DNA from: a virus
UHGV virus genome: UHGV-1361255
DNA length: 55,716 bases
Strand: one strand, 5' to 3'
Shown: positions 6,022 through 52,919 of the stretch, one piece after another
Layout: each line of letters starts with the position of its first letter
Position numbering within the stretch: the stretch's first letter is position 1
Made by a program: the position numbers and the translations under genes
The notes under the pieces: generated by a model
Told to the model about the DNA's origin: nothing
Seen by the model: the letters and a program-made list of their open reading frames with translations, nothing else
The model's database searches: none

Positions 6022-6417
6022 ATGGCTGCGAAAAATAAAGCAGTGGAGCCGGAAGAAACGGTCGTACAGGACAACCATGCGACCGAGACCGCACAGGACA
6101 ACCATGCGACTGAGACCGCACAGGACAACCATGCGACTGAGACCGCACAGGATAACCATGCGACTGAGACCGCACAGGATAACCGTGCGACTGAGACTGC
6201 ACAGGATAACCGTGCGACCGTGGTCGCACAGGCAGAACGCAAATCCGTTGTGTTCCTCGGTCCGCATAGCCGTTATTCCCGTGGAGATATCGCGTGGTTT
6301 GAAGGATCGCACGCCGAAGAGCTGGTTAAGCGCCGTATCGCGGTATGGCCGAAGGATGCCGAACGCGCGCTGAAACCGAAGCCGGGAGACAGCGATTTTG
6401 ATACTGACATTGGATGA
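6022..6417 (+). CDS. hypothetical head-region protein containing 6 tandem DNHATETAQ nonapeptide repeats
   Basis: ATG at 6022 with AGGAG RBS at 6011; the repeats are open in several frames, so coding status is uncertain; the C-terminal 60 aa are non-repetitive. Confidence 0.4.
   Translation: MAAKNKAVEPEETVVQDNHATETAQDNHATETAQDNHATETAQDNHATETAQDNRATETAQDNRATVVAQAERKSVVFLGPHSRYSRGDIAWFEGSHAEELVKRRIAVWPKDAERALKPKPGDSDFDTDIG
6067..6228. repeat. tandem repeat, 6 x 27 bp (caggacaaccatgcgactgagaccgca consensus)
   Basis: six contiguous units at 6067, 6094, 6121, 6148, 6175 and 6202; units 1-4 are near-perfect, units 5-6 diverge; the last unit ends in a perfect sopC-like palindrome. Confidence 0.9.
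6213..6228. promoter_or_regulatory. F-sopC-like 16-bp inverted repeat tgcgaccgtggtcgca (centromere-like SopB site candidate)
   Basis: same arms as the five other copies; the central GT is AC when read on the other strand. Confidence 0.5.
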
Positions 6418-32406: not shown

Positions 32407-32696
32407 ATCATAACACAATTGCATGTCATAGGTTAATCACAACAATTGGCATCGTAACCAATTCAGAGAACATAGTCAAGCATCATAACACAACGGCGCT
32501 ACATATCAGCACACAATAGCCCATTATACGCGCGTATAATGGGCTATTGTGTGCTGATTATCGTAACACAGTCGCACATTGATTTGCGCACGAATCTAAA
32601 TAGTGTTATTTTATATTTATGTGATTATGTTATGATAGTCACGGCGTTGGATTGCACTTTGATTGTGTGATGTTTCTCAGTTTTGTGTTATGATGA
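32407..32696. promoter_or_regulatory. CATCATAACACA-type short repeats flanking telRL and preceding the protelomerase gene
   Basis: direct copies at 32407-32419 and 32481-32493, variants ATCGTAACCA (32451) and ATCGTAACACA (32560), inverted copy tgtgttatgatga at 32684-32696. Confidence 0.4.
32505..32558. other. telomere resolution site telRL: 54-bp perfect palindrome (central tacgcgcgta)
   Basis: mirror-checked base by base: ATCAGCACACAATAGCCCATTATACGCG|CGCGTATAATGGGCTATTGTGTGCTGAT; lies 165 bp upstream of the protelomerase gene, as in N15 and phiKO2. Confidence 0.85.
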
Positions 32697-36486: not shown

Positions 36487-36555
36487 ATAAAATTCTCCTT
36501 CTGAATGCTAACTACTGGAAAGAAAGAGTATTTATACACCATAACAATACGCTGG

Positions 36556-37800: not shown

Positions 37801-37808
37801 CCCTCCGG

Positions 37809-40800
37809 TTATATCGCCACGGCTTGCCGCTGGCTCAGAAAAGCTTTCAGCAGCCTTATCTCGCGTACTGATAGCAGGTCCATAAATTCGGTCATGTACA
37901 GCGAGGCGAACGTTCTCGCGATGCTGGCCACTGGCCACAGGCGTACCGCCTCCATTTCGGTTGCTGGCAACGCGTTCTCCGCCCACGCTTCCGGCACCGT
38001 CACCGGGATAGCCTCCAGTGCCTGAATAATTACTGATTGCGGGGTGTCCGGAATGTGGCTTGTTTTGGATCGAGGGTTACCATGTATATCTATATTTAGA
38101 TCCAGATCGCGATCCACTTCGATGGTGGTTTTTTCGACCTTGCGGGCGTGAATTGATAACCCTGCTTCGCGGCGCTTCTCCACAATATTCATGAGGAACT
38201 CGACCGACTGTGAGTCGATAGAACGCATTGTAGGTCGAGCATCACCATCTCTGGCGCGTCTGGTCTTACTGGATAACCCCATAGACTCCAGGATGCCTTT
38301 GCATAGTTCTTCAGGGGCTTTCTTTTTGCCCTTCTCTGTGTTGAAGCCACCTATGCGCAAAACGTTGTTCAGCAGATCGCGCCGTTCCGGGGTTAGCAGG
38401 TTATCCCTGGCGCGTTTGAGGGCGTCCATGTCGGCCTCACCGGTCAGTGTTTCTGGATCAATACCACAGTCGCGGAAGTACTGTCGCAGCGTTGCTGATT
38501 TGAGAGTGTAAAAACCACGCATGCCTATTTCAACCGCTGGTGTAGATTTGACGCGGTAATCGGTTATGGCCGGGAATTTAGCGTGGAACTCCTCGTCGGC
38601 CTGTTCTCGTGTCATAGCTGTTGTGACAAATTGCTGCCAGCGACCGGCGACGCGATAAGCGTAGGTAAAGTGGATCAACGCTTCCTCGCGGTCAAGGCGA
38701 CGCGCGGTTATCTCATCCAGCTGCATGGTTTCAAACAGACGCACTTTTTTCAGGCCGCCGTCGAAATAGAATTTTAACGCCTCCTCGTCGACATCCAGCT
38801 GCAGCTCCTTTTCGATGTCCCAGCGGACCAGCTGGGCCTGCTCATCCAGAGACAGGGTGCGTTTTTTTATCAACTCATCGTGTTCGCCTTGGTCAGGGGT
38901 ATCGACACTCAGGTGGCGTTCCATAAGCTGCTCAAAGACCAGCTCACGGGCTTCTTTACGTAAATCCTTACCGATGCTGTTTGCAAGCGCGTCGGTAGCC
39001 ATAGGCGCGACCTGATAGCCATCATCATGCATGATGCAAATCATGTTGCTGGCATAATCATTTCTGGCCGACGCCTCGAGCGCGGCGGCTTTAATTTTGA
39101 GCTGCATGAATGAAGAGTTAGCCACACCGAGTGAAATTCGGTCACCGTCAAAGACAACGTCTGTCAGCAGCCCGGAGTGGCCAGCCGTTTCGAGCAAGGC
39201 CTGCGCGTAGGCGCGTTTGATTTTTTCCGGATCGGTTTCACGTTTACCGCGAAGCTTGTCGAAACCGATGATGTATTCCTGAGCTGTACGGTCGCGGCGC
39301 AGCATCTGGATGGCGTCGCTGGGGACCACTTCGCCGCAGAACATGCCGAAATGGCGGTGGAAGTGTTTCTCCTCAATCGATACACCTGAAGATATCGACG
39401 GGCTGTAGATGAGGCCGTCATATTTTTTCACCATCACTTTAGGCTGGTTGGTGAAATCGTCGACTTCCTTCTCCTGTTTGTTTTTCTGGTTAACGCAGAG
39501 AAACTTTTTGTCAGGGAAATGGAGTCTCAGCTGCATGGTAACGTCTTCGGCGAACGTCGAACTGTCGGTGGCCAGCATGATTCGTTCGCCGCGTTGCACT
39601 GCAGCGATGACCTCGGTCATGATCCGATTTTTCTCGGTATAAAATACGCGGATAGGCTTGTTGGTTTCGCGGTTGCGAACGTCGACCGGGAGTTCAATCA
39701 CGTGAATTTGCAGCCAGGCAGGTAGGCCCAGCTCCTCGCGTCGCTTCATCGCCAGTTCAGCAAGGTCGACAAGCAGATCGTTGGCGTCGGCATCCACCAT
39801 AATGGCATGCTCTTCAGTACGCGCTAGCGCGTCGATAAGCGTGTTGAATACGCCTACCGGGTTTTCCATCGCACGCCCGGCCAGAATGGCACGCAGGCCC
39901 TGTGTTGCTTCATCGAAGCCGAAGAAGTCATGCTGGCGCATCAGCGGTTGCCAGCAGCCTTTAAGTATGGAGTTGATGCAAATAGTCAGCTTGTTGGCAT
40001 ATGGCGCCATTTCCTGATAGCCGGGATCCTGATAATGCAGAATGTCGGCTTTAGCGCCTTTCCCTTCGGTCATCATTTCATGCAGGCCGCCTATAAGGGA
40101 TACGCGGTGCGCGACGGAAACGCCACGCGTGGACTGCAGCATCAGTGGACGCAGGAGACCTGTCGATTTACCAGAGCCCATCCCGGCGCGGACAATAACG
40201 ATGCCCTGCAGCTGTGCGGCGTATGTCATAACCTCATCAGTCATCCTGGAGGTTTCAAACCGTTTGTAAGTGATGTGTGACGGGCGAAGGTTCGGGTTGG
40301 TGATGCGTTCACTGAACGAACGTGATGTTTGCGCGGCACGGCATTTGCGATTCAACCGGCGCGTAATGTGATCTTTAACGGTACCGTTATAAATTTCTGC
40401 GATCCCCATATCTCGCAGCGTGCTGCTGAACAGGCGCATAAGTTCTTTCGGGCTGTTTGGTACCGGGCATGTCAGCATGCCAATATCGACGGCGCGAAGC
40501 AGCTCTTTGGCAAAAGTACGTCTGTTCAGCCGCGGGAGAGTACGCAGTTTATTCAGCGTAATCGACAACAGGTCGGTTGCACGGCTCAGATTATTTCTCG
40601 TTAACTGGCGAGCGACTTCCTTCAGCCCTCTCAAGCTGTGCAGGTCGTTAAAATCGCTGCATTCCTGCTCAGGGTCATCCTCAAAAGTTGGGTAAACACA
40701 TTTGACGCCGGAAAACTTCTCCATGATGTCGTATCCGGTGCGCAGGCCTGTGTTGCCTTTACCTTCAGCCGATGATTTGCGGTCGTTATCCAGGGCGCAG

Positions 40801-41798
40801 GTAATTTTTGCTGCCGGGTACATATTCACCAGCTGCTCAACAACATGGGTCATGTTGTTTGCGGCCACTGCGACCACGACAGCATCAAAGCTTTTTTTCG
40901 GGTCCTTACGGGTAGCCAGCCATACGGACGCGCCGGTGGCGAAACCTTCCACCACTGCAATATTTTGCGCGCCGTTCAGGTTGCCGATAACAAAGCACGC
41001 CCCGACGAAATCACCGCTGGTGATCGCGCTGGTCTGGAATTTACCGCCGCGCTGGTCGATACGCTGCCAGCCGACAATTTGTCCGTCTTTGCGTCCGTCC
41101 AGGTGGGCCAGCGGAATCGCCATGTATGTAGTCGGTCCACGGCTCCATTTTGCGTTGTCGTGACTGGTCACGCGACGAATATCGCAAGCGCTGAATACGT
41201 CACGAATGCCTTTTTTCACTGCGTAAGGCCACGACCCGTCCTCAGCTGGCGCATGTTCCCATGCACTGTGGAACGCCAACCATCCGAGCAACCGTTCTTG
41301 CTCTAACTGATTGTTTTTAAGTTCATTTATCCGTTGTTGTTCGGCGCGGCGCTTGCGGGCTTCAGCCTGGCGTTCAATACGCGCCAGTTCTTCAGCAGGT
41401 TGTGCGACCACGGTCGCATGATTTCTTTGTTGTTCACGGCGGTATTCGGCGAACAGGAAGGAGAAGCCGCTCCAGGAACCTTCGTCATGCCCTTTCTGGA
41501 CAAAGTTGACGAATGGGTAGCTGATGCCGCTTTTGTGTTGTTCCTTGCGGGAGTAGATTTCCACACGCCCTTTGAGGCTCTTTTCCAGAGCCTCGGGGGC
41601 GCCACCGTTATATTTTGAATAACGTTCTTCCCCGCCGCGCGGGTTCAACTGAATGTTATCAGCGCATGCTGTCCAGTTAATGCCAGCCATTGTGGCCAGC
41701 TCTGACAGCTCATCCCGCGCTGCTTCAAGCAATGAATACGGATCGCTACCGAAGCGAGCCGCATAGAATTCTTGTAAGGTCATTTTTAGCCTTTCCAT
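37809..41798 (-). CDS. repA: replication protein RepA (primase-helicase; the origin is expected inside the gene)
   Basis: 1329 aa; N-terminal primase-like region, central P-loop (GMGSGKS), N15 RepA-like size and position between the cB region and the small-gene operon. Confidence 0.85.
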   Translation of the reverse strand: MERLKMTLQEFYAARFGSDPYSLLEAARDELSELATMAGINWTACADNIQLNPRGGEERYSKYNGGAPEALEKSLKGRVEIYSRKEQHKSGISYPFVNFVQKGHDEGSWSGFSFLFAEYRREQQRNHATVVAQPAEELARIERQAEARKRRAEQQRINELKNNQLEQERLLGWLAFHSAWEHAPAEDGSWPYAVKKGIRDVFSACDIRRVTSHDNAKWSRGPTTYMAIPLAHLDGRKDGQIVGWQRIDQRGGKFQTSAITSGDFVGACFVIGNLNGAQNIAVVEGFATGASVWLATRKDPKKSFDAVVVAVAANNMTHVVEQLVNMYPAAKITCALDNDRKSSAEGKGNTGLRTGYDIMEKFSGVKCVYPTFEDDPEQECSDFNDLHSLRGLKEVARQLTRNNLSRATDLLSITLNKLRTLPRLNRRTFAKELLRAVDIGMLTCPVPNSPKELMRLFSSTLRDMGIAEIYNGTVKDHITRRLNRKCRAAQTSRSFSERITNPNLRPSHITYKRFETSRMTDEVMTYAAQLQGIVIVRAGMGSGKSTGLLRPLMLQSTRGVSVAHRVSLIGGLHEMMTEGKGAKADILHYQDPGYQEMAPYANKLTICINSILKGCWQPLMRQHDFFGFDEATQGLRAILAGRAMENPVGVFNTLIDALARTEEHAIMVDADANDLLVDLAELAMKRREELGLPAWLQIHVIELPVDVRNRETNKPIRVFYTEKNRIMTEVIAAVQRGERIMLATDSSTFAEDVTMQLRLHFPDKKFLCVNQKNKQEKEVDDFTNQPKVMVKKYDGLIYSPSISSGVSIEEKHFHRHFGMFCGEVVPSDAIQMLRRDRTAQEYIIGFDKLRGKRETDPEKIKRAYAQALLETAGHSGLLTDVVFDGDRISLGVANSSFMQLKIKAAALEASARNDYASNMICIMHDDGYQVAPMATDALANSIGKDLRKEARELVFEQLMERHLSVDTPDQGEHDELIKKRTLSLDEQAQLVRWDIEKELQLDVDEEALKFYFDGGLKKVRLFETMQLDEITARRLDREEALIHFTYAYRVAGRWQQFVTTAMTREQADEEFHAKFPAITDYRVKSTPAVEIGMRGFYTLKSATLRQYFRDCGIDPETLTGEADMDALKRARDNLLTPERRDLLNNVLRIGGFNTEKGKKKAPEELCKGILESMGLSSKTRRARDGDARPTMRSIDSQSVEFLMNIVEKRREAGLSIHARKVEKTTIEVDRDLDLNIDIHGNPRSKTSHIPDTPQSVIIQALEAIPVTVPEAWAENALPATEMEAVRLWPVASIARTFASLYMTEFMDLLSVREIRLLKAFLSQRQAVAI
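41403..41418. promoter_or_regulatory. F-sopC-like 16-bp inverted repeat tgcgaccacggtcgca inside the repA coding region
   Basis: identical to the copies at 52669 and 52823. Confidence 0.5.
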
Positions 41799-41834
41799 GC
41801 GAATTTATGTTTTTTCGGGTTGAAAAAATCCGCA

Positions 41835-41900
41835 GGAGCAGCCACAATAAACGCACAAATCTTCGTAGGGACTGTGCTGCGTTTGTCGTGGGGCTGCTCC
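41835..41900. promoter_or_regulatory. nested long hairpin in the repA leader
   Basis: outer stem ggagcagcc/ggctgctcc enclosing inner stem aaacgca.../...tgcgttt; immediately upstream of the repA start codon. Confidence 0.3.
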
Positions 41901-41902
41901 TG

Positions 41903-41938
41903 AAAAAAGGCCCGAGTTTGCCGACTCGGGTTTTTTTT
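41903..41938. terminator. bidirectional intrinsic terminator between cB and repA
   Basis: cccgagt-ttgcc-gactcggg stem flanked by A6 and T8. Confidence 0.6.
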
Positions 41939-42033
41939 CGTCTTTTTTCGGCTGCTGCAGTCCGATTCAACCGCGATACATTATAGCTAGCATTAAACCA
42001 GATTTATAGGCAGCAATAAACCCTGTTATTCTG

Positions 42034-42642
42034 TCATCTACCCTCTATCATGAACGATTTGATCGTACCGACTATTTGGTGCACAAATTGAAGATCACTT
42101 TTCTCATGGATAACTCGTTGAGAGTTAGCGCCATCTAAGTAGTAGCGCTCATCGTCGAAGCGCGCTAACCGCTGTATCGAGATTTTCCCGTCTTTATCAC
42201 AAACTAACACATCCTCACCCGGAACTGGCGTGAGAGCTGAGTCAACCAGGACGACGTCACCCGGTTGATAGTTGTGCTGAACCTGGTTCCCGACAGTGAG
42301 CGCATAAACGGTTTCCCGCTGGCTAACAAATGGCAGGAATCGTTCTGTGTTGGCAGGTTCTCCTGGCTGCCAGTCGCTATCCGGACCACTCTCTGTTGTG
42401 CCAATAACAGGAACGCGGTCAGGATCAGATTCAGTACCAAAAAGTATCCATTGCACAGGTTTGCGTAGGCATTTAGCCAGGGCAAGCCCAATCTTCAGTG
42501 ACGGCATAACGTCACCACGTTCTAAGTTTTGGACGCCAGGAAGAGAGATATCCACACTTTTAGCAACTTGCTGCAGTGTCATTCCCAGTTCTAAACGGCG
42601 TGCTTTCAGTCGTTCGCCTCGTGTTTTCATACGATCAATCAT
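42034..42642 (-). CDS. cB: prophage repressor CB (HTH plus S24 LexA-like peptidase domain)
   Basis: 202 aa; N-terminal HTH (LGMTLQQVAKSVDISLPGVQNLERG), C-terminal S24-like domain; divergent from cro. Confidence 0.8.
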   Translation of the reverse strand: MIDRMKTRGERLKARRLELGMTLQQVAKSVDISLPGVQNLERGDVMPSLKIGLALAKCLRKPVQWILFGTESDPDRVPVIGTTESGPDSDWQPGEPANTERFLPFVSQRETVYALTVGNQVQHNYQPGDVVLVDSALTPVPGEDVLVCDKDGKISIQRLARFDDERYYLDGANSQRVIHEKSDLQFVHQIVGTIKSFMIEGR

Positions 42643-42653
42643 AAACGATCTCT

Positions 42654-42669
42654 TTATAGCTGGCTATAA
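42654..42669. promoter_or_regulatory. 16-bp perfect palindrome TTATAGCTGGCTATAA in the cB-cro intergenic region (operator candidate)
   Basis: 7-bp arms with a 2-bp centre, 12 bp upstream of the cB start in the 62-bp divergent promoter region. Confidence 0.4.
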
Positions 42670-42704
42670 AATTTATGAATTATACCTAGCTTTAATTTAT
42701 AGTT

Positions 42705-42932
42705 ATGGCATATAATAATTTTATGAAGCCAGAAGAACTTATCCGCCACTTTGGCGACGTCGAAAAAGCAGCTGCAGGCGTAGGTGTAACACCTGGCGCG
42801 GTCTATCAATGGCTTGCGGCTGGGGAGATTCCACCGTTACGCCAGAGCGATATTGAGGTCCGCACGGCATACAAACTGAAGAGCGACTTCACCGTTAAGC
42901 GGGTTAGCAAGGACGGTAGTGATGGAACTTGA
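42705..42932 (+). CDS. cro: Cro-like HTH regulator
   Basis: 75 aa, divergent from cB, HTH (AAGVGVTPGAVYQWL). Confidence 0.6.
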   Translation: MAYNNFMKPEELIRHFGDVEKAAAGVGVTPGAVYQWLAAGEIPPLRQSDIEVRTAYKLKSDFTVKRVSKDGSDGT

Positions 42933-43659
42933 ACGAATCCGCGCTTGTGTGGCCACGGCCCTTTCAGATCTGCATTACCTCCAGCGAGGAATTTTAGAAG
43001 TTCAGCTTGAGCAGTTACGTCTTGCCAACTCCGGCAGGTTTACTGATAAGCCAACCCGGGTCATTCAAATGGGCGAGAATAATAAATACGAGATCTCGGT
43101 CGCGGCTGAGCAGGTTCGTTACCATGTTGGGAAAACGTTTAAGCAATCCTCAATGCTGCTGACTGAACTTGATTTTCAGACGGCTAGTTGGCGCAGAGCC
43201 ATTGAGCAGTTAAATCGTGAGGAAATTGCCTGGCTGCATTATTGCTATGGCTGTAAGCCCAATTTTGAAAATGATGAAGTTATATGCCAGTGGCTATGGC
43301 TGGATTTTCTTGTCGCTCATTCAAAGCCTGATTTCAAAAAAATGAAAGAGGCGACAAAGAAAAAGATGCGCAATTTAACGTATTACGCCATCCAGCAGGT
43401 TAAGGCTTCAATATTACGCGGAGAGGATGTGGACCCGCTGCGTGAGGATGAGCATATAAGTCTTTTGCTTAATATCACCGTCGATAGCTGGCGTAAGGAT
43501 TATAAAAAACGCTGGCTATTAATGAAATCACGATGCCTGCATCTGAATAGCATCGCGTTATTTAACGCAGCGGAGAAGCGCAGTGAAATCATCAACCGCC
43601 ATTGTACAGGAAGTGCCAACGTGCCTGTGCCAGCAGATTATGCACAGGAAGCCCGGTAA
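42919..43659 (+). CDS. hypothetical protein in the Q (late antiterminator) position
   Basis: 246 aa, first gene after cro; function is inferred only from its position in N15-like genomes. Confidence 0.25.
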   Translation: MMELERIRACVATALSDLHYLQRGILEVQLEQLRLANSGRFTDKPTRVIQMGENNKYEISVAAEQVRYHVGKTFKQSSMLLTELDFQTASWRRAIEQLNREEIAWLHYCYGCKPNFENDEVICQWLWLDFLVAHSKPDFKKMKEATKKKMRNLTYYAIQQVKASILRGEDVDPLREDEHISLLLNITVDSWRKDYKKRWLLMKSRCLHLNSIALFNAAEKRSEIINRHCTGSANVPVPADYAQEAR

Positions 43660-43861
43660 ACCCGAACTTAGGTATGCCGCAAACCGTAAAGAGTACATTA
43701 TCTGGTGCCCAACCTGCGATTACCGGACTCATCCTGATACGAACCGGCAATCGGTTATCACTGAATGGTACCTGTCAAATCAGCCTGGTAATAAACACAT
43801 CGAAGATATGTGGCTGAAACGTTATCTGGAAATAAAAGAGGGTGCGACCGCGGTCGCATAG
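43583..43861 (+). CDS. small Zn-ribbon protein (CPTCDY...)
   Basis: probable internal start; its stop codon lies inside the sopC-like palindrome at 43843. Confidence 0.3.
   Translation: MKSSTAIVQEVPTCLCQQIMHRKPGKPELRYAANRKEYIIWCPTCDYRTHPDTNRQSVITEWYLSNQPGNKHIEDMWLKRYLEIKEGATAVA
43843..43858. promoter_or_regulatory. F-sopC-like 16-bp perfect palindrome tgcgaccgcggtcgca
   Basis: GC-centred variant of the centromere-like site; identical to the copy at 47722. Confidence 0.55.
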
Positions 43862-44070
43862 GGTAATGATGCGAACTCCATTTAAACAAGGCCCCATGTC
43901 ATACGATGATGCGGTGCGAATTTCTAACGTTTATCGAAATAAAGGTCGAGAGACTTTAATCACGCGCTCGGATGATTTAGACGGGACGTATTACGTTTTT
44001 GTTTATCTCCCTGAGTCCAGAAAAGTCCCAACGCCATCCAGAACTTTTCAACAAAAAATATGGGAATAAA

Positions 44071-44679
44071 ATGCTTACCTACCATCAATCAATTTTTAAA
44101 ATGATTATGGCAAATTGGCTGAACAGCGATCATGTCATCATCGATACTGAGACCACCGGGCTTATGGCTTCTGATGAAATTATCGAGATCACGATAATTA
44201 ATATGCGTGGTGAGATTCTGTTAAACACCCTGGTGAAGCCGAGCCGCCCTATTCCGCCAGAAGTTACCAAAATTAATAACATCACCAACGAAATGGTCGC
44301 TGATGCGCCAGCATGGTGCGATGTTTTCCCGGCTGCGCTGAAAATTATTCGTAAGCATAAATGGCTGGCATGGAACTCCAGTTTTGATGCCCGCCTGATG
44401 GTGCAGACCTGCCTGCAGACCGGATTTTTTGATGACCTAAAGCCTCACCTCATCACCTCCATCATCATGGCCATTGAGACGCGCCACATTGACGCCAAAG
44501 CGGTTTATGACCAGTGGTATGGGGAGTTCGACGAGAAGCGCAAAAACTTCAAAAGGCAGAGCCTGGCTACAGCAGCTGCGCGCCACGGCATTCCAACCGC
44601 TGGCGCCCATCGCGCGCTTGCCGATTGCCTGATGATCCTCGGCGTGCTGAAACAGGTTTGCCAGCCGGAGGTCGCATGA
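44071..44679 (+). CDS. DnaQ-like DEDDh 3'-5' exonuclease (stand-alone)
   Basis: HVIIDTETTGL (exo I), ...WNSSFDARLM... and a C-terminal H/D motif (AHRALAD); ATG at 44071. Confidence 0.65.
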   Translation: MLTYHQSIFKMIMANWLNSDHVIIDTETTGLMASDEIIEITIINMRGEILLNTLVKPSRPIPPEVTKINNITNEMVADAPAWCDVFPAALKIIRKHKWLAWNSSFDARLMVQTCLQTGFFDDLKPHLITSIIMAIETRHIDAKAVYDQWYGEFDEKRKNFKRQSLATAAARHGIPTAGAHRALADCLMILGVLKQVCQPEVA

Positions 44680-44806
44680 ACTCTGAACTATTCAACTACA
44701 GCCTGAAAACGCTACAGGTGCTGAACGTTGTCGCAGATTTGGTTTTATCAGTGGCGCTGTTTGGCTTTGGGTACGGCCTTCTTAACTTGCTTGAGTGGTG
44801 GCTTGC

Positions 44807-45283
44807 ATGACAGATATCACCCGACTGATTAACAGCATTAAGCGCCGCACGTCCTCAGCAAGAGAGCTTGGCTACGATGTCCTGTTCGTGGCACTTGATG
44901 ATTTGGATGTCCTGGCTGATTCGCTGGAGACGGCGCTGCGCGCAAACGCCGCCCAGGCCGCTCACATCGAGCAGCTGCAGGACAAGTTTAACAAACTTGC
45001 AGCGGAGAATGTGGCGCTGAAAAGAGTTCCGGAAACAGACAGCGTGGCGATGCTGATGGCTCTGGATTCGTTCCGCAGCGAGTCATTGCCGGATGTCGGT
45101 TTGCAAAAAGCGTTTGAAAACTTGATGTACCACCGAAAGACCCCTACCACCGTTCGTATCGTAGCCGGGATTAAGGCTGATGGAGTGGAAGAATGGGTTT
45201 CCAGCAGAGGTGGCCGCTGGAATGGCACGACAGAAGAGGCGCTTAAGTTCGCCAAGCAGCTGCGCGAAGGAGGGAAAGTATGA
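44807..45283 (+). CDS. hypothetical late-region protein (coiled-coil N-half, Ead/DUF551-like C-half?)
   Basis: 158 aa, ATG at 44807 (MTDITRL...). Confidence 0.35.
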   Translation: MTDITRLINSIKRRTSSARELGYDVLFVALDDLDVLADSLETALRANAAQAAHIEQLQDKFNKLAAENVALKRVPETDSVAMLMALDSFRSESLPDVGLQKAFENLMYHRKTPTTVRIVAGIKADGVEEWVSSRGGRWNGTTEEALKFAKQLREGGKV

Positions 45284-45478
45284 GACTGCAAATGCGCACT
45301 CCCGATGGTTCTGTGATTGTCGAGAGCAACCTGGTATCTCAGTTTTACCCCGATTACGAAAGCGGTGGTGAGCTAACAACAATCGAAACTGTTTCTTCTG
45401 ACGGTGAAGCCTCCTTTGTGAAAGTTAAGCACTCGTTTCATCAAGTAACCCATGCTCTGGCTACTGCATGGAGCGTAG

Positions 45479-45844
45479 ATGAAAAAGAAGCGATGCACAC
45501 TCAACGGGAGGAATGCCGTGGCTAAAACCCCTGCAGAACGGCAACGGCAGCGCCGTGAACGTTTAAAGCAGTCCGGCACCACCAGACGCGATTGGGTACT
45601 TGAGCCGGAGGAACTGCGCATGCTGGGCGAAATTTGCATCCAGCGCCGCCCAGGCAGAACGCCGTATTCAGAAAATGAAGTAATCGGCCTGTTAATCCGT
45701 AAGAACTACAAAGAGCTTCAGAAGAGCCTGGCGAACACATGTCAGCGATGTGGCCAGGCGCTGCCGGTGTCTGAATGCATCTTCGACGGCGAAAATTCAT
45801 GCTTACTGACGACTGTCAGACTAAAGCTGGCCATTAAGGCGTGA
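45479..45844 (+). CDS. hypothetical basic protein
   Basis: ORF track; probable internal GTG/ATG start around 45520. Confidence 0.3.
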   Translation: MKKKRCTLNGRNAVAKTPAERQRQRRERLKQSGTTRRDWVLEPEELRMLGEICIQRRPGRTPYSENEVIGLLIRKNYKELQKSLANTCQRCGQALPVSECIFDGENSCLLTTVRLKLAIKA

Positions 45845-46092
45845 CTGGTCACGGAGGCTTAAAAATGGATAAATCGGCATTGCTTTTGGAGAAACTCCGG
45901 CAACGAACGCAAAGTAGCCTGGCCAGCGGTGGCGACGGCTTTGTCTTTGCATCGATGCTGGTCTTTGACGTGGGCTTGAATGCCCGGACTATTCGGCAAA
46001 TGTTGGACGTTGCAGTAAGGAACGGGACGCTTGAAAAAAGGGAAAGAGGCATAGGCCGCGCGCATAAGTATCGGACAAATCTGCAAATTTGA
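45841..46092 (+). CDS. hypothetical small protein
   Basis: ORF track; probable start at MDKSALL (45865). Confidence 0.3.
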   Translation: MTGHGGLKMDKSALLLEKLRQRTQSSLASGGDGFVFASMLVFDVGLNARTIRQMLDVAVRNGTLEKRERGIGRAHKYRTNLQI

Positions 46093-46456
46093 TGAGCACC
46101 TTGACAGGAAATGACGTTTTAGCATTTGCCAAAACGCCTGTGTTTTTATACAGTATATTAATATTTTGTAAGACGAATAACGGGTAGGCTATGTGATGGA
46201 AGATACGGTCCTCTCAAATTGTGAAAGGCTGGACGCTGAGCTGAGTGATATCGATGCCGTATTAGATATGGTATCGGTGGCGATGGCATCCCCGGAGGCC
46301 AGTTTGCATGTGGCTCAAACTATGCGCCTCATTTGTATGTCACGTCGGATGTTGCAGCGGTGCCGGGATCTCAACAAGGTTGAAGGAAGAAGCCACTAGC
46401 CAGCCGAATTGAAAAAGGTGAGGTCTCCCTGACCTTTTACCAGATGCGCCTTATAT

Positions 46457-46486
46457 CCCCGTCCTTCAGGGCGGGGAGGATGTCAA
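46457..46486. repeat. solo copy of the IS605-family right-end-like hairpin motif ccccgtccttcagggcggggaggatgtcaa
   Basis: near-identical (about 33 of 36 nt) to the sequence immediately 3' of tnpB at 52594-52623; abuts the higA stop codon. Confidence 0.4.
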
Positions 46487-46488
46487 GT

Positions 46489-46776
46489 TCAGTATACGGC
46501 CTGGATGTTAATTTCAGCGCCGCACGCTTGTGCGTATTTGCTCAGTGTCTTCATGCTGGCCCCCAACGGGTTCCCCTCGAGGCGGCTAATAGCAGATGGC
46601 GTGATCCCCATCCGCTCCGCCAGGGCAGATTTGCTTAACCCAGCCTTTTCACGCATCTCGTACAGCATTTCGACCAGTGCCAGCTCTTTATCTGCTTCCT
46701 GGTAACCCCGGATTGCCTCCGGGGTGTTGAGCAGACTTTCTTTGACCTGGTTAAATGGGATGCCTTTTACTTTCAT
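46489..46776 (-). CDS. HigA-like HTH (XRE) antitoxin
   Basis: 95 aa with HTH (LSKSALAERMGITPSAISRLE); overlaps the upstream toxin gene. Confidence 0.6.
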   Translation of the reverse strand: MKVKGIPFNQVKESLLNTPEAIRGYQEADKELALVEMLYEMREKAGLSKSALAERMGITPSAISRLEGNPLGASMKTLSKYAQACGAEINIQAVY

Positions 46777-47084
46777 TAGCTCATCTCCTTCAGGCGCTTT
46801 CTCGCTATCTCTATGGCCCCTGCCGGGGTTTTTTGTGTCTTCTTAACAAACGCATGCAGTAGGTAGATTTCGTGGCCGACTGCGTAAGCGTATAACGTTC
46901 TTGCTATGTTTTTGTCTCCAACCCTTAACTCAAAAAGCCCGGCGCCAATTACGCGGCTATGAGGCATTTTTAGTTTTCCTTCACTTTCCAGTCTTTCAAT
47001 CAGTCGGGTCATGCGACCTCGTAACTCGTCCGGTAGTTCCTGTAACTCTTCCAGTGCTGCCGGGTGGGTTATCACGTTAAACAT
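46776..47084 (-). CDS. HigB/RelE-family (Gp49-like) toxin
   Basis: 102 aa; ...ARTLYAYAVGHEIYLLHAFVKKTQKTP... is typical of HigB/Gp49-like toxins; toxin-first higBA order. Confidence 0.6.
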   Translation of the reverse strand: MFNVITHPAALEELQELPDELRGRMTRLIERLESEGKLKMPHSRVIGAGLFELRVGDKNIARTLYAYAVGHEIYLLHAFVKKTQKTPAGAIEIARKRLKEMS

Positions 47085-47484
47085 AGTATATCCTCCCTAT
47101 GTGTTTAAATATACCAATAAATTAATTTTCACACAATAGAGAAATTTAACTAAAAAGTGAAAAATAAGACTGGATGTCTCATGTTGCCAGAGTTACAGTT
47201 CGTGTCGTTGAGACGGGAAACAAACCCGGTAACTAGATGAATTTGGAGGATATTGTGAACTATCAAGGCAACGAAAAAATGAGACAGGACGCGGCTGAGA
47301 TTTCTAACGAACTGTATGAACTCTGGCAAAAAGTGAAGCGTTTCCAGCGTGAGTACAGCTTCAACAGCGAGAACATTACAGACAGACTGGCGGGCCGACT
47401 GATTGGAACAATGGAACCCAAACTGGCCGACCTTAACAGCTTTATGGCCGATGTCGATTACCAGTTTGAAGATTAAAGGGGGAA

Positions 47485-47715
47485 ATGATGAACGTGAAAC
47501 AGATCCGCGAGAATATGACCGAAGCGGCCCTGAGCGTTGAGAGTGTAATGCGGGGACACCCCCGCATCACCCTGCAGGAATTAAGCACCGCCTGCAGCAT
47601 TAGCCTGCCAGCGGTGGAGTTTATTATCGAGCAGATGCTTTGTATGAGGGTGGCGCAGCGGGGCGCTTTTGGGCGGTACTCCCTTACCCCGGAATACCAA
47701 AATGGTAGCTTTTAA
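47485..47715 (+). CDS. small winged-helix-like protein
   Basis: 76 aa upstream of the methyltransferase gene; followed directly by a sopC-like site. Confidence 0.3.
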   Translation: MMNVKQIRENMTEAALSVESVMRGHPRITLQELSTACSISLPAVEFIIEQMLCMRVAQRGAFGRYSLTPEYQNGSF

Positions 47716-47721
47716 AAACTG

Positions 47722-47737
47722 TGCGACCGCGGTCGCA
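47722..47737. promoter_or_regulatory. F-sopC-like 16-bp perfect palindrome tgcgaccgcggtcgca
   Basis: identical to the copy at 43843; followed by gcatag as in that copy. Confidence 0.55.
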
Positions 47738-47985
47738 TAGAAAGAAAATGAAAAAGGTTGGCAAATAAGGCTTTTTTAGGTATCGTTTTTGTATGTTGGG
47801 AATTTTATAGCCAACGCTCTCACAACCGCCGCCAAGGCGGTTTTTTTATGCCTTGGAAATGGGCGCTACAGCATGTGTCACCATGCTGTAGCTTTCAACC
47901 CATGCCGCCTGACAGGGTCAAAACAAGGCCCATTGCTGATTGCGCAACAGCAAAAAGAGCCTACCAAAAAAGGCCACTAAAGACC

Positions 47986-49047
47986 ATGAAAAACACTGTG
48001 AAAATAAACAGTGCTGAACTTGTGCATGCAGATTCACTTGAGTACATCAAAACCCTGCCGGACAACAGCTTAGACGCCATCATCACCGACCCACCGTATT
48101 ACCGCGTAAAGGCAAATGCCTGGGATAACCAATGGCCCAGCGTAACGGATTATTTGGCCTGGCTGGATGAGTTTTTCGCCGAGTTCTGGCGAGTGCTTAA
48201 GCCAGCAGGGTCGTTATATGTGTTCTGCGGGCCGAAATTATCATCGGACACTGAGCTGTTGTTACGTGACCGTTTCAACGTGCTGAACCATATCGTTTGG
48301 GCCAAACCCAGCGGGCGCTGGAATGGCGCGCGTAAAGAAGGTTTCCGATCTTATTTTCCGGCCAGTGAGCATATTTTCTTCGCAGAGCATTACGGCGCGG
48401 AAGGCTTTGCTAAAGGCCAGGCTGGGTATGCGACAAAGTGCCAGGAGTTGAAAGGCCAGGTCTTCGAACCGCTTATCGCTTATTTCCGGGATGCTCGCCA
48501 GCGACTTGGTATTTCCGCTGCCGAAATCAACGCGGCAACCGGCACGAAAATGTGTAGCCACTGGTTTAGCGCCAGCCAATGGCAATTGCCCAATGAACGG
48601 CAGTACCTGGCGCTGCAGGCGCTGTTTAACCGTAAGGCCGCAGAGCAGGGAATAACGGGATTGTCAGAGCCGCATGCGGCGCTGCAGGAGGAATACGGCA
48701 CTTTAACGGCGCTATATTCCGAACTGGTTATGCAGTATTCCGAACTGCGACAGCAGTATGAGAATTTGCGGCGCCCTTTCCATGTGACAAAAGATGTTCC
48801 ACACACCAACGTGTGGACGTATCCACCGGTTCCGTACTATCCGGGCAAACACCCATGCGAAAAACCGCTGCAGATGATGCTCGACATCATTTCGGCTTGT
48901 ACGCGCCCTGGCGATGTGATCGCCGACTTTTTTATGGGGTCGGGTGCAACGATAAAAGCCGCGCTGCAGTTAGGACGCGGAGCCATCGGCGTAGAGCTGG
49001 AAGAGGAGCGATTTTTACAGACGGTCTCCGAGATAGAAAAACAATAA
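47986..49047 (+). CDS. DNA N6-adenine/N4-cytosine methyltransferase (beta class)
   Basis: DPPY motif near the N-terminus (DAIITDPPYY) and AdoMet motif near the C-terminus (DFFMGSGAT); ATG at 47986. Confidence 0.75.
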   Translation: MKNTVKINSAELVHADSLEYIKTLPDNSLDAIITDPPYYRVKANAWDNQWPSVTDYLAWLDEFFAEFWRVLKPAGSLYVFCGPKLSSDTELLLRDRFNVLNHIVWAKPSGRWNGARKEGFRSYFPASEHIFFAEHYGAEGFAKGQAGYATKCQELKGQVFEPLIAYFRDARQRLGISAAEINAATGTKMCSHWFSASQWQLPNERQYLALQALFNRKAAEQGITGLSEPHAALQEEYGTLTALYSELVMQYSELRQQYENLRRPFHVTKDVPHTNVWTYPPVPYYPGKHPCEKPLQMMLDIISACTRPGDVIADFFMGSGATIKAALQLGRGAIGVELEEERFLQTVSEIEKQ

Positions 49048-49105
49048 TCAACAGCCTCGCCTAAGTGCGGGGCTTTTTATTACCCGCCACGCGGGTGGCG
49101 GAGTC

Positions 49106-49417
49106 ATGAACACAGCTATCGAATATGGAAATCCTGATCTCTGGCTGGTCTTGCTCATGCTGGCCGCCGGGGTGGTATCAGGCGCCCTGCTTTCCGAAAC
49201 CCCTATCAACCCGCGCCGCCTCATCGGAGACGTTCTGAGAGGCGTAATCGTGGCCATCATCCTCTGGGCTTACGGCGCTATGGGCAACATCTCAATTTTG
49301 AACGTAATCACTCTCGCCGGTTTATCGGCTGTGGCATGGCCACACACCGTCAACGAAATCACCGGCTTTGCAAAACGAACTATCAGCCGAATTTTCGGCG
49401 GGAGAAAAGAACGATGA
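49106..49417 (+). CDS. holin
   Basis: 103 aa with 2-3 TM helices and a charged C-terminus; stop overlaps the next gene start (ATGA). Confidence 0.55.
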   Translation: MNTAIEYGNPDLWLVLLMLAAGVVSGALLSETPINPRRLIGDVLRGVIVAIILWAYGAMGNISILNVITLAGLSAVAWPHTVNEITGFAKRTISRIFGGRKER

Positions 49418-49905
49418 ATTATGGACTGGTGAGCAAGCAAGACGCGCGCCTGTATGCCGAAGCCGTTTGCGATGTGATCGGGCATGGCAAGGCGAATGCA
49501 GCTGTTTTGCTGTGTGTCGAAACGGCCGCAGCCGAGACATTGCTCGGCGATTACAAAGACCCGACGCCGACCAGCGCCGGAACCGGATTAACTCAGGTTG
49601 ATCTCGGTACCTTCGAATGGCTCCGCGATAAGTACAAAAACAGCCGTTATGCCCCGGTACTGCTGAATCAGTTTGGTATCGACCTGAGCCGAACAGTTTA
49701 TGCGGAACTGAGGACCTCGCCGCTGATGGCGATGCTGTTTTGCCGCCTGCGCTATCTGGCGGTTTCAGAGTCGATTCCGGCGACTCGCGAGGCCCGCGCA
49801 GCGTACTGGAAAAAATATTACAACACCTCGGCAGGCAAAGGCACGCCGCAGGATTACATTGATAAATGCCAGCGCGCTGGCGTTGATGCGCTATTCACGC
49901 AGTGA
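49414..49905 (+). CDS. putative endolysin (position-based)
   Basis: 163 aa between the holin and spanin genes; no catalytic motif recognised by eye. Confidence 0.45.
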   Translation: MNYGLVSKQDARLYAEAVCDVIGHGKANAAVLLCVETAAAETLLGDYKDPTPTSAGTGLTQVDLGTFEWLRDKYKNSRYAPVLLNQFGIDLSRTVYAELRTSPLMAMLFCRLRYLAVSESIPATREARAAYWKKYYNTSAGKGTPQDYIDKCQRAGVDALFTQ

Positions 49906-49921
49906 GGCGCGAGGAGTGATT

Positions 49922-50398
49922 ATGAACAGTTTAAAACGTATGGCTAAAGCCTGGTTGCTGATGAATGGTGCCTTCGTCCTTCTTGTGATGGCGACGCAAC
50001 CAGCGATGGCAAATGAGAGCCAGAATCTTGGTTTGGATCTGGATTCAATTCTGAGCGCTCTTCCTGCAGGCTGGGCCAGCGGCGTAACTGCCGTATTTAT
50101 CGTGCTGTATGCGGTGGCGCAGCTGCGCGCCGTACTCCCCCCGTCAGTGACCAAAAGGATTCCCACGGTGGTCATGAAAATTCTCGACCTCGTTGCCGCG
50201 AACTATGCCCACGCCCGGAACGCTGATGCGATCAGCAAAGTTGCGCGGGATGCCGGGAAAGCCAAAGGCCCATCAGATGTTGATTATCGTGTGATGGTGG
50301 AAACGGCCAAAAACAATGGAGAGCTTCGTGGAAGCCGGATTGAGAGTGCTGGCGATTATCCTGGAGATGATCGCCCAGGCAGTAAAAGCCCGCAATGA
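49922..50398 (+). CDS. i-spanin-like protein (N-terminal TM anchor, periplasmic helical domain)
   Basis: 158 aa, N-terminal hydrophobic segment, position after the endolysin. Confidence 0.4.
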   Translation: MNSLKRMAKAWLLMNGAFVLLVMATQPAMANESQNLGLDLDSILSALPAGWASGVTAVFIVLYAVAQLRAVLPPSVTKRIPTVVMKILDLVAANYAHARNADAISKVARDAGKAKGPSDVDYRVMVETAKNNGELRGSRIESAGDYPGDDRPGSKSPQ

Positions 50399-50424
50399 AG
50401 CGGAGCGCCAGGCGAGGATTGAGT

Positions 50425-50643
50425 ATGCGCGTAATAACCCAGCTGATTATCTGCGTCGCTTTGGCCGGGTGCGTGAAATCAACGTCAATGACACCAACAC
50501 TGAATCCGGCTCCGTGCGCAGCGGAAAAGCCGGTGATTGATGTGGTTCACGTCGATGGGCATTTCGTTATCGATGATGACGATATGGGCAAACTGACCGG
50601 CTACATTGCCGCACTGGAAGCGGGCTGCACCGCACAGAAATAA
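50425..50643 (+). CDS. o-spanin-like outer-membrane lipoprotein
   Basis: 72 aa, lipobox LAGC, Pro- and Cys-rich mature part; follows the i-spanin gene (separated arrangement). Confidence 0.5.
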   Translation: MRVITQLIICVALAGCVKSTSMTPTLNPAPCAAEKPVIDVVHVDGHFVIDDDDMGKLTGYIAALEAGCTAQK

Positions 50644-50705
50644 AGTCAACTATAAAAACGACTATCTTCGCGACGGGTCACAGGATAAAGTATCTACGCA
50701 AATGA

Positions 50706-50735
50706 TTGACGTGTGTTGTATGTTGGCGGTAGAGT
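50706..50735 (+). promoter_or_regulatory. sigma70-like promoter TTGACG-18 bp-TAGAGT driving the locus-2 sRNA
   Basis: matches the locus-1 promoter in sequence and spacing. Confidence 0.4.
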
Positions 50736-50742
50736 TACCCCG

Positions 50743-50817
50743 CTGTAGCAAAATCTGCAGCCGGGCGTGAGAACCCGAGAGACAGTCAGCGCACAACACG
50801 CGCTTGCGTGTTTTTTT
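50743..50817 (+). ncRNA. candidate ~76-nt regulatory sRNA (P4 CI / N15 cA-like), locus 2
   Basis: hairpin gctgtagc-aaaat-ctgcagc, box A GCGTGAGAAC (50765-50774), intrinsic terminator cacgcgc-ttg-cgtg plus T7 (50797-50817). Confidence 0.4.
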
Positions 50818-50977
50818 GTGTGTAAATCCTGCGCATACCTGAATTATGGTGGCTCAGGTGGGGCAGCTTTCGGGCTGGCCGGTTGCTGATTGTGCCGGTT
50901 TCTCACCCCCGCCTGGGCTACCACCAATTGAGCGTGAGAACTCTGGTGGTGGCAAAACCATCAATCAGAGGTGAATC

Positions 50978-51142
50978 ATGTATCAGTTCAAATTCGCGGC
51001 GATCTGCCGTACCGACCGTAAAAACAACATTCATCATTTTTCGACTATTGCTGATAGTGAGCATGCAGCGCGCCGCCAGCTTTCCTACAAGTTCGTTCTG
51101 TTTTTCCAGGCACGCCTACCAGTATCGGGAGGTGCAGCATGA
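50978..51142 (+). CDS. 54-aa small protein (paralog of 35706..35870)
   Basis: GAGGTG RBS; stop overlaps the next start (ATGA); not in the ORF track because it is shorter than 60 aa. Confidence 0.45.
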   Translation: MYQFKFAAICRTDRKNNIHHFSTIADSEHAARRQLSYKFVLFFQARLPVSGGAA

Positions 51143-51363
51143 ATCAAATGAAAATGAACGAACATGGACTAGCTGAATCGCTAGAATCTGTACTCTGTCA
51201 GATAGTTGCTTTGCTAAATGTTACCCAGAATGCACTTGATGGAAGTGAAGGTAGCATCTATATGCGAGATGCTGTGCATATGCTTAATGCTGCGCGTAAT
51301 CTGGCCATTGAAGCAGAGCAATACCGATCCGAATGGGAACAACTGATTATTCGCAACCGGTAA
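51139..51363 (+). CDS. 74-aa helical protein (paralog of 35479..35709), C-terminus possibly altered by the tnpB insertion
   Basis: similar to the 76-aa paralog up to about residue 55, then diverges; ends 8 bp before tnpB. Confidence 0.45.
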   Translation: MNQMKMNEHGLAESLESVLCQIVALLNVTQNALDGSEGSIYMRDAVHMLNAARNLAIEAEQYRSEWEQLIIRNR

Positions 51364-51371
51364 GGGATTAT

Positions 51372-52580
51372 ATGTTGAAGCGGCAGGCCTTCAAATTCCA
51401 GCTAAGACCAAATGGTCAGCAGGAGCGCGATATGCGGCGCTTCGCAGGGGCTTGTCGCTTCGTTTTTAACCGCGCGCTGGCATTTCAGAATGAGAACCGT
51501 GAAGCCGGAAACAAATATATTCCCTACACCAAAATGGCTTCATGGCTCATTGAGTGGAAATCCGCACCGGGAACAGCATGGCTGAAAGAAACACCTTCGC
51601 AGCCGTTGCAACAGTCACTGAAAGATCTGGAGCGCAGCTACAAGAATTTCTTCCAGAAACGCGCAGCATTCCCACGGTTTAAAAAGCGCGGGAAAAGTGA
51701 TTCATTCCGCTATCCCCAAGGTGTGAAACTGGAGCAGGGAAACAGCCGAATTTACCTGCCAAAGCTGGGATGGATAGGTTATCGCAACAGCCGTGAAGTC
51801 ATTGGCGAAGTGAAAAACGTCACGGTCAACCAGTCATGCGGTAAATGGTACGTCAGTATCCAGACGGAATACGAAGTGGCTGCCCCCGCTCACCATGCAA
51901 AGTCAATGGTCGGGTTGGATGCCGGAGTCACGAAACTCGCCACGCTTTCAGATGGCACGGTATACCATCCAGTCAACAGCTTTAAAGCAAACCAGCGCAA
52001 GCTGGCAAAGCTCCAGAGGCAGTTAAGCCGCAAAGTTAAATTCAGTGCCAACTGGCAGAAACAGAAGAAAAAAATCCAGCGTCTGCACTCGCACATTGCC
52101 AATATTCGGCGCGACTACCTTCACAAAGTCACCAGTGAGATCAGCAAAAACCACGCAATGATCGTTGTTGAGGATTTGAAGGTAAGTAACATGTCGAAAT
52201 CGGCAAAAGGCACGGCAGAACAGCCTGGACGAAACGTCAGAGCTAAATCAGGCCTGAACCGTTCGATACTGGATCAGGGCTGGTATGAAATGCGTCGTCA
52301 GCTGGAGTACAAGCAACTCTGGCGTGGTGGTCAGGTACTGGTAGCTCCGCCAGCATACACGAGCCAACGTTGCGCCTGCTGTGGTCATACAGCGAAAGAG
52401 AACCGCCTGTCACAAAGTAAATTTGTATGTCAGGTATGCGGCTACACAACGAACGCCGATATCAACGGTGCTCGTAACATTTTAGCGGCAGGACATGCCG
52501 TGCTTGCCTGTGGAGGGATGGTGCAGTCAGGCCGCCCGTTGAAGCAGGAACCCATCGAGGTGATTCAGACGTCAGTCTGA
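51372..52580 (+). CDS. tnpB: TnpB (OrfB) RNA-guided endonuclease of an IS200/IS605-family element
   Basis: 402 aa from the ATG at 51372 ([17 protein letters not shown]); RuvC motifs GLDAGV, IVVEDLK and [10 protein letters not shown] with a CxxC...CxxC zinc finger, all intact. Confidence 0.85.
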
Positions 52581-52593
52581 ACGCGGTAGGAAT

Positions 52594-52623
52594 CCCCGTC
52601 CTTTAGGGCGGGGAGGATGTCAA
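52594..52623. repeat. IS605-family right-end-like imperfect hairpin ccccgtcctttagggcggggaggatgtcaa
   Basis: 14 bp after the tnpB stop; a second copy is at 46457-46486. Confidence 0.45.
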
Positions 52624-52668
52624 ATTGCTGGTCCGATGACAGGTCGCATAGCGGCAAAATTGAGACCG

Positions 52669-52684
52669 TGCGACCACGGTCGCA
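52669..52684. promoter_or_regulatory. F-sopC-like 16-bp inverted repeat tgcgaccacggtcgca
   Basis: part of a ~48-bp repeat unit aggtcgcatagcRgcaaaat...tgcgaccacggtcgcac that recurs 154 bp downstream. Confidence 0.55.
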
Positions 52685-52822
52685 CAGGCCAAGAACCGGT
52701 ATCCCCATTTAGGGATAAATCGTGTTCTATCCCTACAAAGGGATAAAACCCGGCCACAGTAGAGTGCAAGGTTGCCCCGCAATGCCCTATCCATAGGTCG
52801 CATAGCAGCAAAATAGAAGCCA

Positions 52823-52838
52823 TGCGACCACGGTCGCA
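52823..52838. promoter_or_regulatory. F-sopC-like 16-bp inverted repeat tgcgaccacggtcgca
   Basis: second copy of the 48-bp unit (52795-52843); an 8-bp stem hairpin tagggata/tatcccta lies between the two copies. Confidence 0.55.
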
Positions 52839-52871
52839 CGGGTCAGTGAATCAACAAGAAGATGAATAAAA

Positions 52872-52896
52872 ACACCACCTTCGGGTGGTTTTTTTA
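52872..52896 (+). terminator. intrinsic terminator upstream of the head-operon leader gene
   Basis: accacc-ttcg-ggtggt stem followed by T7. Confidence 0.6.
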
Positions 52897-52919
52897 TTTC
52901 AGATCACGGAGCGAAAAAT

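Follow-up and report, generated by a model that had tools for sequence, protein, structure and literature searches.

The closest described counterparts of the system considered here are the partition systems of the linear phage-plasmids N15 and phiKO2 and of plasmid F, and they are compared below with a set of palindromes in the virus genome UHGV-1361255, a DNA of 55,716 nucleotides that was analysed as a whole and is referred to as the window. N15 has four natural centromere repeats, inverted repeats (IR) 1 to 4 (Ravin & Lane 1999, as cited in PMC7205306 and PMC3597684), the oligonucleotides for which carry TGCGACC-NN-GGTCGCA (PMC7205306 Table 4); in that work, from the Lane laboratory, N15 SopB gathered into foci on an array composed of the four IRs, and the N15 sites are not used by F SopB (PMC7205306). 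For phiKO2, the source paper of which is Casjens et al. 2004 (as cited in PMC8465637), the RefSeq record NC_005857 contains four features labelled "putative plasmid partitioning site", all four of which read TGCGACCACGGTCGCA. The F centromere, sopC, is composed of 12 tandem 43-bp repeats beside sopB, with the pattern TGGGACC-PuPy-GGTCCCA (Pu, purine; Py, pyrimidine) and the core TGGGACCACGGTCCCA (PMC3597684, PMC3177203). Arm positions 2 and 4 to 7 as well as the purine-pyrimidine centre weigh most in F SopB binding, while positions 1 and 3 weigh least, position 3 being the commonest natural variant, and F-like sites "dispersed over the genome" have been noted in three bacteriophage genomes (PMC3177203). 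Chromosomal parS sites are similar in that several single 16-bp palindromes over tens of kilobases nucleate ParB complexes (PMC3597684); on the other hand, they belong to another ParB family with another motif, and they cluster round the replication origin of a circular chromosome.

Six palindromes and the element that carries them

An exact search of the window for TGCGACCNNGGTCGCA returned the six copies listed in the initial annotation and none besides:

6213..6228, no strand assigned: sixth site, inside the gp7-like gene, encoding (R)ATVVA
41403..41418, no strand assigned: IR1-type site, inside repA; equivalent to N15 IR1 and phiKO2 site 37906
43843..43858, no strand assigned: IR2-type site, downstream of the Q-like gene; equivalent to N15 IR2 and phiKO2 site 40346
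47722..47737, no strand assigned: IR3-type site, 20 bp upstream of the late-promoter -35; equivalent to N15 IR3 and phiKO2 site 45385
52669..52684, no strand assigned: IR4-type copy 1, directly 3' of the tnpB segment
52823..52838, no strand assigned: IR4-type copy 2, some 30 bp ahead of a terminator and the gp59-like gene

The motif, a 16-bp inverted repeat with the consensus TGCGACC-NN-GGTCGCA, is the same as that of the N15 IR1-IR4 oligonucleotides and of the annotated phiKO2 sites, and it differs from the F sopC core solely at arm position 3, the change being symmetric in the two arms. The initial annotation had related the motif to both the F core and the scattered single centromere sites of N15-type phage-plasmids; since the motif is the same as in N15 and phiKO2, that reading was right and the phenomenon has already been described. 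The centre dinucleotides, too, are as first counted, namely, AC in three copies, GT in one (AC on the opposite strand) and GC in two, so that all six are purine-pyrimidine, and no F-type core (TGGGACC..GGTCCCA) occurs in the window. A mismatch-tolerant search, which the initial annotation had called for, added just two sites when up to two mismatches were permitted: one at 4862, within the capsid gene, and one at 6078, in a degenerate unit of a 27-bp tandem array. Chance or compositional artefact can be dismissed as the source of the repetition: 0 of 100 dinucleotide-preserving shuffles of the window yielded any match, a mononucleotide model predicts 2.8e-4 sites in the window (and, at Klebsiella-like composition, about 0.04 per 5.4-Mb chromosome), and orthologous sites are kept in N15, phiKO2 and six Klebsiella relatives.

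From sequence comparison, we consider it very probable that the palindromes constitute the dispersed Sop centromere of a linear phage-plasmid of the phiKO2/N15 type. The window is a complete Klebsiella phage-plasmid of this family, in which the region 29800-42700 shares 99.5% identity with Klebsiella phage vB_KpnS_KpLi5 (KpLi5), about 90% with phiKO2 and 84% with N15, and the stretch 50600-52900 is 100% identical to the 55-kb Klebsiella variicola plasmid NZ_CP151192.1. As it starts at the small terminase gene, it represents the whole genome in virion orientation. The partition, telomere and replication functions are encoded as follows:

29883..30863, minus strand: sopB, centromere-binding protein (Pfam SopB_HTH, E = 9e-21), the real start of which is probably the GTG at 30848
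30851..32014, minus strand: sopA, ParA-type partition ATPase (Pfam AAA_31 and CbiA)
32505..32558, no strand assigned: telRL, a 54-bp perfect palindrome (inverted repeat of 27 + 27 nt, 100% complementary)
37809..41798, minus strand: repA, primase/helicase replication protein of 1329 amino acids, homologous to N15 gene 37 and phiKO2 gp35

The telRL site is the target of protelomerase and is converted into the hairpins at either end of the linear plasmid; the protelomerase gene telN is present in the window, and equivalents of telRL are annotated in N15 and phiKO2. The sopBA operon is F/N15-like, as first proposed, with SopB 77% identical to its N15 homologue and 86% identical to that of phiKO2, the helix-turn-helix (HTH) region being almost invariant, and sopA syntenic with N15 gene 28 and phiKO2 gp25. 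In the plasmid form, sopAB lies 0.5-2.6 kb from telL, and the six sites are spread over 8.9-29.4 kb from telR, site 6213 being the farthest at 29.4 kb, approximately mid-molecule, and the other five lying at 8.9-20.3 kb.

The layout is that of the dispersed N15/phiKO2 type, with the motif, a cognate sopAB and scattered sites on a telomere-bearing linear prophage. The F centromere is similar in its 16-bp inverted repeat, in the arms (save position 3), in the purine-pyrimidine centre and in the homologous HTH protein that binds it (PMC3597684, PMC3177203), and differs in its tandem arrangement next to sopB; in the window, no 43-45-bp tandem repeats with consensus sites adjoin sopB, downstream of which lies only a bidirectional terminator-like inverted repeat.

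Sites at the four N15 positions

Every site of the window was compared by alignment with the equivalent sites of N15, phiKO2, KpLi5, 020009, 48ST307 and Kpn74. Five of the palindromes (41403, 43843, 47722 and the pair 52669/52823) proved to be positional orthologues of IR1 to IR4; 6213 did not. At the IR1 position, the place and flanks of 41403 are kept in phiKO2, KpLi5, 020009, 48ST307 and Kpn74, and comparison with N15 gives 13/14 identical arm bases and 75% identity over the 40-bp flanks; the site ends 380 nt from the start codon of repA, close to the roughly 400 nt first estimated. At the IR2 position the arms are identical (14/14), the centre is GC versus TC in N15, and the flanks are 84% identical. 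Site 43843 lies at the 3' end of a small open reading frame (ORF; 43583-43861), the stop codon of which is the TAG of GGTCGCATAG; the same sequence is read at 47722, in accordance with the earlier remark that both copies are followed by gcatag. At the IR3 position the arms again agree in 14/14 bases, and the flanks are just 46% identical. This site precedes two predicted elements:

47758..47786, plus strand: late promoter-like site (TTGGCA, 17-nt spacer, TATCGT), predicted by a consensus scan
47824..47842, plus strand: predicted terminator following the late promoter-like site

The arrangement of promoter and terminator agrees with the annotated late promoter/terminator of N15 and phiKO2. At the IR4 position 14/14 arm bases are identical to N15, with flanks of only 25% identity. 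Hence, at all four positions, only the two centre bases vary within the sites, save for the single arm difference at IR1, and such constancy of the arms between diverged flanks is what one would expect if a protein binds the palindrome. At these positions, 4-7 such sites are present in each of seven complete relatives, and the copy number in the family ranges from 4 (N15 and phiKO2) to 7.

The N15 genome itself contains three exact copies of the motif and one, in repA, with a single mismatch. The latter is IR1 (N15 RefSeq 33480-33495), which reads AGCGACCACGGTCGCA in the record and TGCGACCACGGTCGCA in the oligonucleotide of PMC7205306 Table 4; either the record and the oligonucleotide differ by one base or the oligonucleotide was deliberately idealised.

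Compared with N15, the window shares the 16-bp motif, the scattering of single copies far from sopAB and the four positions (inside repA, downstream of Q, and ahead of the late promoter and of gene 59), and it differs in several respects: (i) there are six copies instead of four, the IR4 position being doubled 154 bp apart and a further copy lying in the head region; (ii) the centre dinucleotides are not the same; and (iii) the host is Klebsiella, and the head-tail genes are HK97/phiKO2-like, whereas those of N15 are lambda-like. phiKO2 is closer, with four sites of the same motif at the same positions and a sop-telN-repA backbone about 90% identical, but it has a single IR4-type site, lacks a site in the acidic N-terminal region of Gp7 and has no tnpB/C4-icd segment.

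The sequence shows directly the identity of the motif, the orthology of the positions, the constancy of the arms between diverged flanks and a conserved SopAB; binding by SopB, complex formation and effects on neighbouring promoters we infer from the literature on F and N15. At each 16-bp inverted repeat a SopB dimer would bind by means of its HTH domains, bound SopB would nucleate a larger, spreading SopB-DNA complex, and the SopA ATPase would position the SopB complexes on the nucleoid such that each daughter cell inherits a copy. The several dispersed sites would act together, with 41403, 43843, 47722 and the 52669/52823 pair in the places of N15 IR1, IR2, IR3 and IR4, respectively. SopB would also bind 6213, because its sequence is the same as that of the other sites, with the result that a complex would sit roughly midway along the 55.7-kb linear molecule. 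The N15 sites are reportedly able to stabilise a plasmid (Ravin & Lane 1999). Given the locations inside repA, after Q and by the late promoter, an influence of SopB on late transcription and replication is plausible; judging by the title of Ravin, Rech & Lane 2008, as cited in PMC11652158, a coupling of partition with late genes appears to have been published already for N15.

There are also points that speak against a centromere. One of them is that all sites, being palindromic, could fold as RNA hairpins too (6-9 bp each, -11 to -14.5 kcal/mol), in which case they might serve mainly as transcription or RNA elements, such as terminator-like or mRNA-stabilising hairpins, SopB binding being secondary. 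Such a role would suit the annotation of N15 IR4 as a putative terminator stem-loop and the location of several sites at gene ends or before promoters/terminators. It is, however, very unlikely, given that (i) a hairpin would allow compensatory changes, whereas the arms are invariant and only the two centre bases vary; (ii) the repA-internal site lies on the antisense strand of the late operon; (iii) real terminators with T-runs are separate from the sites, although nearby (47824-47842 and about 52870-52898); and (iv) the SopB foci of N15 form on an array of exactly these repeats (PMC7205306). The other points of this kind concern site 6213 and are given with it below.

Systems of this kind have been described before, and the closest reference genome has its own sites annotated; the present element adds a member with minor variations, namely, the doubled IR4 site and the additional site in the head gene, and no description of such extra sites in Klebsiella was found in the searchable open literature. 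For annotation purposes, the six sites can be labelled Sop centromere (IR-type) in what is a very common Klebsiella family of telomere phage-plasmids.

The palindrome in the head gene

Site 6213 is absent from N15 and phiKO2: the N-terminus of phiKO2 Gp7 is acidic, unrelated and site-free, and the head module of N15 is a different one. It is found in the following setting:

6022..6417, plus strand: gp7-like head-module gene, 131 amino acids, identified by translation and comparison with phiKO2 Gp7
6066..6232, plus strand: 27-bp tandem array of 6.2 copies (Tandem Repeats Finder), encoding the 9 amino acids QDNHATETA, with the degenerate unit TGCGACTGAGACCGCA

No Pfam family matched the gp7-like protein. 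The perfect palindrome is present only in the last unit of the array; the other units read TGCGACyGAGACyGCA and deviate from the 16-mer at 2-3 bases (right-arm positions 5 and 6 and, in most units, left-arm position 7), with a purine-purine centre. They are unlikely to be good sites, because the changes hit positions that are important to F SopB and the centre is of the wrong type. For the same reasons the possibility that the 27-bp array is a sopC-like array was rejected; the array is coding, lies 23.6 kb from sopB and contains one consensus site.

The perfect palindrome is kept in 7/7 Klebsiella phage-plasmid relatives, in which the number of array units ranges from 1 to 6, and the gp7 region matches 177 PLSDB plasmids. 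The residue encoded by the centre codon varies (V, A or T), with the arms unchanged. In a codon-aware test covering all haplotypes, third positions in the arms were polymorphic at 1/6, compared with 40/62 elsewhere (P = 0.024); with Sop-less gp7 loci only, the figures were 1/6 and 33/62 (P = 0.08). These values are no more than suggestive of constraint at the DNA level. The KpLi5 record annotates two minus-strand hypothetical proteins across its gp7 region (5929-6568) and is probably mis-annotated there, because the plus strand carries the conserved gp7 frame together with a ribosome-binding site of its own.

Loci were gathered from IMG/VR through the C-terminal domain of gp7, chosen independently of the site, and protein-anchored scans with SopB and TelN were also carried out. 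Out of 80 gp7 loci, 71 have the exact palindrome, 1 has it with one mismatch and 4 with two mismatches, and the remaining 4, which are phiKO2-like, are without the site. Only 6/80 have an IR4-type site upstream, and most loci, upstream of the terminase, resemble the ST846-type prophage more than the window. It is here that the remaining points against a centromere arise: with so many exact copies, telN or sopB is present on only 4 of the 52 gp7 contigs of at least 40 kb, and the integrated prophage ST846-OXA48phi9.1, which shares the head module and has no sop, telN or repA, carries the gp7 palindrome as its sole site.

A diverged head module, about 78% identical to that of the window, has the same 16-mer in the non-coding spacer between capsid gene and gp7:

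3555-3600 of locus L030, and in 14 other IMG/VR loci: 26-bp perfect palindrome CTCTGTGCGACCACGGTCGCACAGAG in the spacer, just before a terminator-like hairpin

Among these contigs sopB and telN occur together on 1/15; a second contig comes from a sample that also holds contigs with sopB and telN.

Because the same palindrome is found in gp7 of many prophages that have neither sopB nor telN, the standing of 6213 as a selected centromere is uncertain, and it was probably brought in with the head module instead of having evolved for partition in this element. It is quite conceivable, if somewhat less than an even prospect, that 6213 is no centromere selected in this plasmid and instead a conserved feature of the gp7 family, with another role or none, whose match to the Sop recognition sequence is a coincidence or the outcome of recruitment in one direction or the other; the evolved centromere would then comprise five sites at four positions. 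Such an origin is in keeping with the solitary site of ST846-OXA48phi9.1, with the ST846-like loci that have no IR4-type site upstream, with the 48/52 large contigs devoid of both telN and sopB, with the spacer palindrome of the diverged module and with the fact that phiKO2 and N15 partition without 6213, but it has to contend with several observations: (i) identity with the Sop arms at 14/14 bases is much too improbable for an independent origin; (ii) the palindrome is perfect in all seven Klebsiella phage-plasmid relatives despite the variable number of units around it; (iii) head-module alleles are intermixed between phage-plasmids and prophages, so that the prophage copies may be recent exports; and (iv) the only decayed gp7 palindromes, at 5 loci, are all in Sop-less contexts. 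Since alleles are intermixed and 5/5 decayed copies lie in such contexts, recent export of the head module from the abundant phage-plasmids is the simplest explanation for the copies in Sop-less prophages.

Active maintenance of the gp7 palindrome in Sop-less Klebsiella prophages, as a centromere mimic or as an element of the head module, appears unlikely. In the first case, a chromosomal gp7 site might recruit the SopB of a co-resident telomere phage-plasmid and disturb its partition; in the converse case, the palindrome might be a DNA element of the head module that is exploited by the Sop system. If true, phages sharing one virion module would fight, or cooperate, via a partition site. The wider interest of the site lies in the question of why Sop-less prophages keep an exact Sop-type site in a head gene.

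Doubling of sites and the surrounding segment

The IR4-type copies at 52669 and 52823 are 154 bp apart and are embedded in a 51-nt direct repeat, the units of which are 86% identical. The initial annotation thus correctly saw a duplicated unit (of about 48 bp, in its estimate), but the pair does not lie directly before the head operon: it is situated between tnpB and a terminator (with a T-run, at about 52870-52898) that is followed by the gp59-like late-operon gene, and the head genes begin past cos, at window position 32. The N15 counterpart, IR4 (45562), is flanked by genes 58 and 59. The two copies also occur, at a distance of 150-154 bp and without tnpB, in the relatives 020009, NAR688, 48ST307 (with 1 mismatch) and Kpn74, KpLi5 retains copy 1 alone, and in phiKO2 the lone IR4-type site (48619) has a 5' flank like that of copy 1 and a 3' flank like that of copy 2. 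The Klebsiella pneumoniae lineage has undergone a local duplication at the IR4 position.

Where the relatives have the gp58 gene (DUF4406), the window contains a 2-kb segment (50647-52641), the end of which coincides exactly with the start of the first repeat unit. Insertion of tnpB as the cause of the doubled site was considered and rejected, the same pair being present in relatives without tnpB; together with the position of the segment edge at the start of the repeat, this indicates that the duplication is older than, and unrelated to, the tnpB segment.

A second doubling is seen at the IR3-type site by the late promoter, which is repeated in tandem at 47 bp in three relatives, 020009, NAR688 and 48ST307 (L006, 16138/16185; L010, 15133/15180; NAR688, which is L008 and in reverse complement, 15940/15987), a spacing near the 43-bp period of F sopC. 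Centromere copy number in this family drifts upward by local duplication, through the 154-bp doubling at IR4 and, in some relatives, the 47-bp doubling at IR3, and such local doubling takes an arrangement of dispersed single sites slightly closer to an array of the F kind.

Each 51-nt unit at IR4 opens with the half-site AGGTCGCATAG (52641-52651 and 52795-52805), about 21 bp ahead of the full palindrome. The phiKO2 half-site falls within the 3' end of gp58. Between the two IR4-type copies is a 103-bp spacer (52692-52794) with two TATCC-N8-GGATA hairpin units, TATCCCCATTTAGGGATA and TATCCCTACAAAGGGATA, which resemble HipB-type operators. No hipA-like gene was detected downstream of the spacer, where there is a 423-amino-acid ORF without a Pfam match.

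The segment 50647-52641 carries a second, inverted copy of the secondary-immunity module, followed by tnpB:

50742-50816: isrK-like RNA of the second-copy module
50842-50928: C4 antisense RNA of the second-copy module
50883-51176: icd-like ORF of the second-copy module
51333-52580: tnpB, after the icd-like ORF
35928-36116, minus strand: first C4/isrK copies

Used as a query, the segment with C4/icd and tnpB has full or partial matches in more than 1,800 PLSDB plasmid records, and, among the matches listed, the unit at query positions 143-2024 (C4/icd + tnpB) recurs on plasmids of 280-400 kb. A 35-nt repeat, ATCCCCGTCCTTyAGGGCGGGGAGGATGTCAA, occurs at 46455-46489 and 52592-52626 with 94% identity. 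The copy just 3' of tnpB is probably the right end of the element or the end of its guide-RNA scaffold; the solo copy lies 3' of an antitoxin gene and is present in the tnpB-less KpLi5 too.

Elsewhere in the element, the gene for the J-like tail protein (4195 amino acids, 15695-28282) contains many diverged internal repeats, the spacings of which are multiples of 132 nt, and its length differs widely between relatives (for instance, 10.3 kb in phiKO2 as against 11.4 kb in KpLi5).

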